Of a stretch of DNA of 39,488 nt, positions 3,485 through 4,015 are shown piece after piece. Under the pieces are notes generated by a model that saw only the letters and a program-made list of their open reading frames with translations, did no database searches and had not been told where the DNA came from. Numbering within the stretch: position 1 is the stretch's first letter; the number at the start of each line of letters is the position of its first letter. The DNA comes from Escherichia phage vB_Eco_ZCEC02, in sequence record PV833354.1; one strand, given 5' to 3'. The translations under genes and the position numbers were made by a program.

Positions 3485-3715
3485 ATGCCAATGAAACTTG
3501 TAGCACACAACAGAGTATTCAAAGATGGGTCGGGAAGCTGCCATGTAGAGCTGACTTATAAGGATTTAGTCATTCTCCGAGACAGATTACAAGCGGGTGT
3601 GACTGGGTGGATTCAACCTAACGAGTACAACCTTATAGCTTCGATTGATGAAGTTCTTAACGCGTGGATGGAAGACGAGCGCATTCAGTATCCGTCATTC
3701 CCTAAAATTAGATAA
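3485..3715 (+). CDS. hypothetical protein (76 aa), no T7 counterpart at this position
   Basis: ATG at 3485 with AGGAGG 8 nt upstream; lies between gene 1 and the phi1.1-type promoter, where T7 has no gene. Confidence 0.6.
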   Translation: MPMKLVAHNRVFKDGSGSCHVELTYKDLVILRDRLQAGVTGWIQPNEYNLIASIDEVLNAWMEDERIQYPSFPKIR

Positions 3716-3725
3716 GGAGAGAGTT

Positions 3726-3941
3726 ATGAAATTTGCACACAAGCAGAGCGGCGTTAAGGGTGGGACTCAAATCGTGACCGTAACAGAACACAACGGCAAG
3801 GGTCTGGTGAAGACCACGGTCATCCCTACCGAGATGTCCAAGCAGCTTAACATCCCGTTCAAGACTCTTGTATATCTGGTCGAGTCCAGCCACGAGAAGT
3901 ACCTGAAGGACGCAGTGTCCAAGCTGGAGCAGGCCAAATGA
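3726..3941 (+). CDS. hypothetical protein (71 aa)
   Basis: ATG at 3726 with AAGGAG at 6-nt spacing; track ORF 3645..3941 trimmed to this start. Confidence 0.6.
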   Translation: MKFAHKQSGVKGGTQIVTVTEHNGKGLVKTTVIPTEMSKQLNIPFKTLVYLVESSHEKYLKDAVSKLEQAK

Positions 3942-4015
3942 CAGACATACAGTTACTGGCCCTGTGGCTGGGAGCACTCGCAGTATTCACTTTAATCCAA
4001 CGCAGAAGAGGTTAA
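3938..4015 (+). CDS. tiny hydrophobic peptide (25 aa), speculative
   Basis: ATGA overlap with the upstream stop; product MTDIQLLALWLGALAVFTLIQRRRG; ends just before the promoter at 4018. Confidence 0.25.
   Translation: MTDIQLLALWLGALAVFTLIQRRRG

Follow-up and report, generated by a model that had tools for sequence, protein, structure and literature searches.

Small genes between gene 1 and the phi1.1 promoter of a K1F-type phage, including one for a predicted 25-residue membrane peptide

In bacteriophage T7, gene 1 ends at position 5822 and the promoter phi1.1A follows at 5848, which leaves a gap of ~25 bp. In phage T3, gene 1.05 lies between gene 1 and phi1.1 and is served by its own promoter, phi1.05; a primary replication origin is annotated in the same interval. 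Here, the corresponding interval was analyzed in Escherichia phage vB_Eco_ZCEC02 (sequence record PV833354.1), whose 39,488 nucleotides (nt) are referred to as the window. In the window, ~545 bp separate gene 1 from the phi1.1 equivalent, and three open reading frames (ORFs) were found there: ORF A (76 amino acids, aa), ORF B (71 aa) and ORF C (25 aa). Like T3 gene 1.05, they sit between gene 1 and phi1.1. However, they are not homologous to it, and the interval has no promoter of its own. The original prediction, which was made from the letters of the window alone, had listed two ORFs and a possible third and set the wide gap against the tight junction of T7. Its coordinates and sizes proved exact, and the contrast with T7 was borne out.

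Comparison with related genomes showed that all three ORFs are protein-coding sequences under purifying selection. The reading that we favor, with a probability of roughly 0.7, is that they are three real small accessory genes at the 3' end of the gene 1 transcription unit, that their products are made early, and that ORF C acts at the inner membrane.

Coding status, layout and expression of the interval

The 721 bases around the ORFs were used as a megablast query. Identity was 99.9% to Kayfunavirus EcoIv1_Emlis and 99.7% to vB_EcoP-101136BS1 (Escherichia phage, species Kayfunavirus LM33P1). In total, 216 phage records matched the query, nearly all of them from K1F-like podoviruses of enterobacteria. 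By these identities the window is a Kayfunavirus genome (K1F/LM33_P1-like) and therefore a K1F-type relative of T7. Annotated relatives share the layout of its ORF cluster. For comparison, the homologous interval was gathered from 29 related genomes (GenBank records and IMG/VR contigs), giving 30 sequences with the window. A few more divergent sequences were added later.

Between the stop codon of gene 1 (3469) and the promoter, the three ORFs lie on the same strand, each with a Shine-Dalgarno (SD) sequence. Read in frame, ORFs A, B and C had ratios of nonsynonymous to synonymous differences (pN/pS), pooled over pairs of sequences, of 0.33-0.35, 0.34 and 0.25, respectively; the remaining two frames of that strand gave 1.1-1.6. 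The sole frame near the annotated one was the antisense frame that shares its wobble positions (0.43-0.47), as is usual through the shadow effect. Of the six frames, only the annotated one was free of stop codons in every relative. The low in-frame ratios and the sole stop-free frame together show that ORFs A, B and C are coding and under purifying selection, and they were intact in all relatives read that carry them. The strong SD sequences pointed out by the original prediction, AGGAGG 8 nt before ORF A and AAGGAG 6 nt before ORF B, recur outside the window. An (A)GGAG core is found 5' of ORF A in the relatives that carry it, and an SD-like motif precedes ORF B in 30 of the 30 sequences compared. 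For ORF C, 29 of 30 sequences have GGAG, GAGG or a related core 7-10 nt 5' of the start, within three different variants of the ORF B C terminus. It could be argued that the ORFs are spurious or decaying frames without function, since no known domains are present, one natural deletion of ORF B exists and ORF A is absent from most relatives. This is highly improbable, however, given that purifying selection is confined to the annotated frame, that the SD sites are present, that the AlphaFold2 (AF2) model of ORF B is confident and well packed, and that the carriers hold the ORFs intact.

To search for known functions, ORFs A-C were compared with Pfam, NCBIfam, PADLOC and the PDB sequences. All searches were empty, and PHROGs returned families of unknown function only, in line with the earlier statement that no recognizable motifs are present. 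Literature searches (peptide strings; K1F, gp1.1 and gene 1.05; Kayfunavirus with anti-defence) found no functional study of the three ORFs and no transcriptome or proteome of the Kayfunavirus early region. The sequences of A, B and C were likewise absent from the available part of the supplements of the phage accessory-gene screen by Silas et al. No family, fold or paper in the sources searched gives a function to A, B or C, and neither homology nor structure searches found an orthologue with a described function. Databases already list ORFs A and B, as hypothetical proteins and as members of PHROG families; ORF C is annotated only sporadically.

Across the genus, the order of elements is gene 1 - (ORF A) - ORF B - ORF C - (gene 1.05) - phi1.1 - R1.1 - gene 1.1. 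Throughout Kayfunavirus, ORFs B and C belong to the standard layout, and ORF A alone is a sporadic cassette, present in 39 of the 219 records that carry ORF B. The term insertion, which had been used for all of the ORFs, is thus correct relative to T7 but not for the genus, where the layout of the region is normal and no oddity. A homologue of T3 gene 1.05 (Pfam PF25755) follows ORF C directly in 16 of the 30 sequences. PF25755 matches the extra gene of EcoDS1, GW1 and ST21, and in EcoDS1 the insertion point of gene 1.05 lies exactly at the junction of ORF C and promoter. In the window, tblastn with the EcoDS1 protein found nothing, and PF25755 matched none of A, B and C. Given this genus-wide variation of the slot and T3 gene 1.05, the tight gene 1/phi1.1A junction of T7 is only one state of a variable region. 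Among the gene 1.05 homologues (for example L001, 2121-2591; L004, 1781-2248; L005, 1780-2154), an N-terminal stretch weakly matches several coiled-coil Pfam families.

The location of the ORFs is that of early (class I) genes. They lie on the same strand as gene 1 and start 15 nt after it, no terminator-like site intervenes, and R1.1 lies downstream. In 3300-4400, neither a sigma-70-like promoter (scanned on either strand) nor an intrinsic terminator was found, and an Rfam scan of the same interval gave no match. Co-transcription with gene 1, as originally proposed, is therefore consistent with the sequence, and placement on the processed mRNA follows by analogy with T7 and T3. As in these phages, host RNA polymerase would transcribe gene 1-A-B-C as one mRNA, and RNase III would trim it at the R1.1 hairpin just downstream, which is the probable 3' end of the processed message. 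With a shared mRNA and cleavage at R1.1, the A, B and C proteins would be made early, along with the phage polymerase. The SD of ORF B overlaps the stop codon of ORF A and the start of ORF C overlaps the stop codon of ORF B, so that translation is probably coupled along the chain.

ORF C, a candidate inner-membrane peptide

All 34 relatives read (33 distinct contigs) have an intact ORF C. It has 25 codons and overlaps the stop codon of ORF B in every one of the 30 sequences compared, and its own stop codon varies between TAA, TGA and TAG. A tblastn search with ORF C returned 175 phage records, each covering at least 80% of the query. Identity of ORF C was 76-96% in cases where ORF B was down to 47-53%. 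Judged by these comparisons, ORF C is the best-conserved and most constrained element between gene 1 and phi1.1.

Constraint at the peptide level was assessed in 18 peptide variants. W10, Q21, R23, R24 and G25 were invariant, position 22 was R in 16 variants, and D3 was present in 15. The hydrophobic character was kept in all 18. Divergent variants of ORF C were obtained from a Logan contig (MTDNQLWLTLWSAFLITFIVFQRRRG), Kosakonia phage Kc166A (MSDSLWLVIWLALLVVYIIRQRRRG) and Pectobacterium phage LET1 (MTDLKWLALWLAFLAVYTLIQSRRG). There, MxD, W10 and RRG are kept, whereas the nucleotides and the start context have changed. One divergent ORF C is a 26-aa form that arises by an in-frame indel of a whole codon.

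The architecture of the peptide consists of MTD, ~17 hydrophobic residues and a QRRRG tail. Its mean Kyte-Doolittle hydropathy was 2.28 over residues 4-20 and 1.82 over 19 residues. ORF C thus has the hydrophobic stretch and the charge asymmetry (positive-inside) of a single-pass membrane microprotein and is predicted to be one. Following the positive-inside rule, it would most likely insert in the inner membrane as a single helix, with the MTD end in the periplasm and the QRRRG tail in the cytoplasm. Its target there could be a protein of the host inner membrane, or it could affect membrane and entry functions. The 25-aa hydrophobic peptide had been listed by the original prediction as a possibility only; it proved to be real.

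The type I toxins LdrD, TisB and ShoB and the microproteins AcrZ, MgrB and MgtS share this general build: all are smaller than 50 aa and have one hydrophobic helix and a charged end. To our knowledge, ORF C has no sequence similarity to any of them. It differs from the bacterial type I toxins and microproteins in being phage-encoded and, as predicted from the overlap, co-translated with a soluble protein. An antisense RNA to ORF C of the type I toxin kind is not supported, since a scan of both strands of 3300-4400 found no consensus sigma-70 promoter.

The nucleotide sequence of ORF C carries additional constraint. Its last seven codons are nearly invariant, third positions included. Where gene 1.05 follows, they double as its SD; in genomes that lack it, they adjoin the promoter. 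From the silent-site invariance and the role as gene 1.05 SD it follows that part of the constraint on ORF C is cis-acting. In the extreme case, ORF C would encode no functional peptide, and all of its conservation would reflect overlapping cis signals, i.e. the SD or translational coupling of gene 1.05, the edge of phi1.1, or replication-origin sequences. The almost invariant 3' third (ATCCAACGCAGAAGAGGTTAA), the GAGG that it places 7-8 nt before the gene 1.05 ATG where 1.05 is present, and the location of the annotated T3 primary origin, in the corresponding interval, fit such an explanation. However, the first 18 codons alone gave a pN/pS of 0.28, compared with ~1.07 for the remaining frames of that strand. 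None of the 30 sequences departs in frame or length even though the stop codon is swapped, and the peptide pattern is kept despite the exchange of CGT for AGA, GGG for GGT and AGT for CGC and despite one whole-codon indel. The SD 5' of ORF C is also kept in three variants of the ORF B tail. We therefore regard an exclusively cis-acting role as very unlikely and retain a membrane peptide as the probable product of ORF C.

Database records were inspected for ORF C. It is not annotated in the records of the seven relatives examined (K1F, EcoDS1, ASO2B, GW1, ST21, Kc166A and LET1) or in the gene table of SH4/SH5. Annotated copies are GA2A gp10 (YP_009324944) and IMM-002 gp14, which are 72-76% identical to ORF C and show the same overlap onto the upstream gene. 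The DUF2842 label on the IMM-002 copy is unsupported, as no Pfam family matches ORF C at E ≤ 1. The IMM-002 record (L030) is over-annotated around ORF C: in 837-1033, antisense coding sequences (CDSs) named "metal resistance protein" and "hypothetical" are listed, and a 1.05 CDS begins inside ORF C. Within the 30 sequences compared, W6 and Y17 mark an ORF C subtype that never occurred without gene 1.05.

The predicted genus-wide and overlooked membrane microprotein is the one mildly novel point of the locus: a 25-aa peptide missed by most annotations corresponds to the most constrained element between gene 1 and phi1.1. A more specific proposal would assign ORF C, as an early membrane microprotein present throughout the genus and so far overlooked, a particular role at the inner membrane; ORF B and the exchangeable ORF A would share the hotspot with it, each as an independent host-directed factor. 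This proposal is tentative, and in its full form we consider it doubtful. If it were true, ORF C would be a new functional class among the early genes of the T7 family. Examples of such a role are the blocking of genome entry by superinfecting T7-like phages, or the neutralization of a membrane-bound host protein or defence effector.

ORFs B and A in a variable slot

ORF B matched the phrog_8082 profile with an E value of 3.6e-42 (residues 1-66 on positions 1-66 of 66). It was found in 219 phage records and 157 protein clusters, and contigs were ~40 kb wherever a long contig was recorded. No relative was found in the genomes of 185,579 species. The protein is named gp1.1 in K1F, EcoDS1 and Dev2. 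K1F "gp1.1" is 94% identical to ORF B, and the family occupies the same place after gene 1 or after ORF A. Dev2 (Cronobacter phage) gp1.1 belongs to the same uncharacterized phrog_8082 family. However, ORF B had no Pfam match at E ≤ 1, including PF08200 (T7 gp1.1). This family matches the ORF at 4113-4292 instead (43 bits; cut-off 21), which is the true homologue of T7 gene 1.1. The name gp1.1 is thus a misnomer for ORF B that reflects position only, and a recurrent misnaming is corrected: the K1F-type "gp1.1" is not T7 gp1.1.

The AF2 model of ORF B had a mean predicted local distance difference test score (pLDDT) of 92.5 and shows a meander of three strands that precedes two helices, first a short one and then a long one (beta3-alpha2). 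A helix-turn-helix had been suspected from the stretch TEMSKQLNIPFKTLVYLV; the confident model shows the beta3-alpha2 fold instead. A relationship to LptE/RlpB was also considered. The LptE/RlpB fold (PDB 8h1r_B and others) is structurally similar, but identity is 3-13%, ORF B is less than half the size, and features of membership fail. By reading, the N terminus (MKFAHKQSGVKGG) has no hydrophobic leader, and the whole protein contains no cysteine and hence no lipobox. The fold is a common two-layer alpha/beta sandwich that also matches chaperones of type III secretion systems, SecB and hibernation factors. A search of BFVD with ORF B returned uncharacterized phage proteins only. ORF B would most likely be a basic soluble binder of some acidic host macromolecule.

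In one relative, ORF B is naturally deleted. In the 39 kb contig L032 (Logan SRR31227532; 1501-1779), only the last eight codons are left of an ORF B of the 66-aa type; they are joined to ORF A, and the ORF B stop codon is changed from TGA to TGC. ORF B is effectively lost, so that at least one phage can do without it. ORF C and its SD are intact in L032. This bears on the possibility that ORFs B and C form a two-part module, in which a soluble basic protein and a membrane anchor or effector would be produced in a fixed ratio through translational coupling and serve superinfection exclusion or membrane-associated counter-defence. Besides the retention of ORF C with its SD in L032, the independent recombination of the subtypes argues against such a module; L016 and L017, for example, have identical ORF B but different ORF C types. 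The fold matches of ORF B are also generic. We consider a module possible but improbable.

ORF A is rarer. It matched the phrog_28104 profile with an E value of 3.9e-52 (residues 1-76 on positions 1-76 of 76) and was present in only 39 phage records. Among 5.8 billion proteins, nine clusters were found. A second subfamily comprises four clusters at 43-47% identity. A profile search of 1.84 billion representatives gave five credible representatives, two of which are additional remote members (E ~1e-9). Two further matches were long, visibly repetitive proteins and were judged false. In 241 million metagenome records, only two ORF A loci were found. With these two loci and no ORF B in the species genomes searched, the distribution of both ORFs appears to be phage only. 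The AF2 model of ORF A had a pLDDT of 68.7 and shows two helices and, with low confidence, two short paired strand residues near the N terminus. ORFs A and B both begin M-K-(L/F)-(V)-A-H and were compared as candidate diverged paralogues; this was rejected at an hhalign probability of 0.2%. The product of the EcoDS1 gene AS9_0007 ("unknown product") lies in the same slot and is 87% identical to ORF A.

Every ORF A member with readable context lies immediately 3' of gene 1, and 5' of ORF B where the contig extends that far. Remote homologues (P0130-P0135) occupy the same slot after gene 1. The gene is present or absent between otherwise colinear genomes, and in comparison with K1F, which lacks it, the edges of the cassette fall in the AGGAG repeat of the ribosome binding sites. 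These junctions suggest that ORF A was gained or lost by recombination at AGGAG microhomology. ORF A would accordingly be described as an exchangeable accessory cassette that behaves like the variable host-range and counter-defence genes of T7-like phages.

T7 encodes several small proteins that resemble the products of ORFs A-C. gp0.3 (Ocr), gp0.4, gp0.6, gp2, gp5.7 and gp1.2 are 25-120 aa long, non-structural and early, and often dispensable and variable. We know of no sequence or fold relationship of A-C to any of these. By analogy with the small early proteins of the T7 family and with accessory-gene hotspots, the role of A-C is most likely host-directed (takeover, exclusion or counter-defence), a view that we hold with moderate confidence. 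Alternatively, the proteins could act on transcription by modulating the phage or the host RNA polymerase, as T7 gp2, gp5.7 and gp3.5 modulate RNA polymerase. Such a role would explain the tight linkage to gene 1, and it agrees with the position of the ORF A family, which is always immediately after gene 1, remote members included. All three ORFs are apparently on the gene 1 mRNA, and ORF B is small and basic. Overall we judge a role in transcription to be unlikely and prefer the host-directed one.

Several points weigh against the favored reading of three early accessory genes with ORF C at the inner membrane. The hydrophobic core of ORF C, at 15-17 residues, is short for a membrane span, and part of its conservation, as described above, is cis-acting. 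The ORF A model is moderate in confidence only. No homologue of known function was found in Pfam, PHROGs, NCBIfam, PADLOC, PDB or the literature searched. Finally, subtypes of ORF B and ORF C are reshuffled among genomes, which argues against a strictly co-evolving pair and shows how little constrains a functional guess.

Therapeutic and engineering work makes wide use of kayfunaviruses (K1F, LM33_P1, CLB_P1 and many Salmonella, Enterobacter and Citrobacter phages) as chassis, and their early region holds unstudied genes. The (A)-B-C-(1.05) segment is mapped here as a small recombination hotspot of the kind that usually houses counter-defence or host-range genes. ORFs A-C are well-defined targets for knock-out, rather than evidence of a new principle or mechanism.

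Boundaries of the interval and neighboring features

The features of the interval and its surroundings are listed in Table 1.

Table 1. Features in and around the interval between gene 1 and gene 1.1 of the window
Feature	Position	Strand	Remarks
Gene 1, T7-type single-subunit RNA polymerase, 893 aa	788..3469	+	from the ORF list; upstream neighbor, same transcription unit
SD of ORF A, AGGAGG	3471..3476	+	8 nt 5' of ORF A start
ORF A, 76 aa, rare accessory gene	3485..3715	+	phrog_28104, unknown function
SD of ORF B, AAGGAG	3714..3719	+	overlaps ORF A stop codon; 6 nt 5' of ORF B
ORF B, 71 aa, basic, isoelectric point 9.65, soluble alpha/beta	3726..3941	+	phrog_8082, genus-wide "K1F gp1.1" family, unknown function
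SD core of ORF C, GGAG	3926..3929	+	inside 3' end of ORF B; 8 nt 5' of ORF C start
ORF C, 25 aa, MTDIQLLALWLGALAVFTLIQRRRG	3938..4015	+	predicted single-pass inner-membrane peptide; start overlaps ORF B stop (ATGA)
Phage RNA polymerase promoter, phi1.1 equivalent (T7 phi1.1A)	4017..4039	+	downstream edge of ORF cluster; predicted +1 at 4034
R1.1-type RNase III site, core hairpin	4045..4071 (outer pairing 4032-4085)	+	RNA fold -20.8 kcal/mol, z -2.57
Degenerate phage promoter copy	4079..4103	+	AACCCTAAATAAACACTACTGGAGA; aligned with T7 phi1.1B
T7 gene 1.1 homologue, 59 aa	4113..4292	+	Pfam PF08200 Phage_1_1, E 6.1e-11; phrog_4383

Gene 1 is annotated as RNA polymerase in all close relatives, and the Pfam domains RPOL_N and RNA_pol are recorded for its homologues in L032 and L035. 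At the downstream edge of the cluster, the K1F promoter core (CTAAACTATCACTATAGG) was matched perfectly at 4018-4035. This core occurs in 11 copies in the window, compared with 0.02 expected by chance. A promoter is annotated at the homologous place in EcoDS1 and ASO2B, and the element aligns with T3 phi1.1 and T7 phi1.1A. The hairpin that follows contains ACTCAAGGTCAT...GTGGCCTT.ATGATT, which is common to the annotated R1.1 stem-loop of T3 and the matching stretch of T7. The degenerate promoter copy further downstream was absent from promoter matches allowing up to three mismatches. It is probably inactive as a promoter, and its GGAG is the SD of gene 1.1. T3 holds a similarly decayed stretch at this place.

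A 38-aa ORF with a GTG start (3964-4080) is annotated as CDS 101136BS1_024 in MZ234024. It runs across the phi1.1 promoter and the R1.1 hairpin, and pN/pS in its frame was ~1. It was rejected as a gene and is most likely an annotation artefact.

Upstream of gene 1, a phage promoter with one mismatch to the core was observed at 697-714, ~75 nt 5' of the gene 1 start. Next comes ACTCAAGGTC, a motif with which the R1.1 hairpin also opens. Taken together, the promoter and the motif suggest that the phage enzyme, too, may transcribe gene 1 and ORFs A-C and that the transcript may be processed at an R1-type site. Transcription from 697-714 would probably add to that by the host enzyme.

Gene 1 starts at 788 in the window, compared with ~2.3-3.0 kb in the K1F, EcoDS1 and ASO2B records. 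A terminal direct repeat was sought, and the first 30-200 bases of the window were not found elsewhere in it. The position of gene 1 and the missing repeat thus suggest that the window is a permuted assembly or that its first base lies within the early region.

In the gene 1.2 slot (4296-4556), the window encodes an 86-aa protein (MNHYELKDFAKSLG...) that belongs to no PHROG family. No Pfam cut-off was passed; the only match was DUF5813, with 17.5 bits against a cut-off of 25. A BLASTP comparison with gp1.2 (dGTPase inhibitor) from the phage with 99.7% identity over the upstream 721-base query showed no similarity. Either the gene has been replaced, or the protein is a gp1.2 allele of extreme divergence. 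The 86-aa allele is also present in L016 (94%) and L018 (41%), and it could matter for PifA/dGTPase sensitivity.

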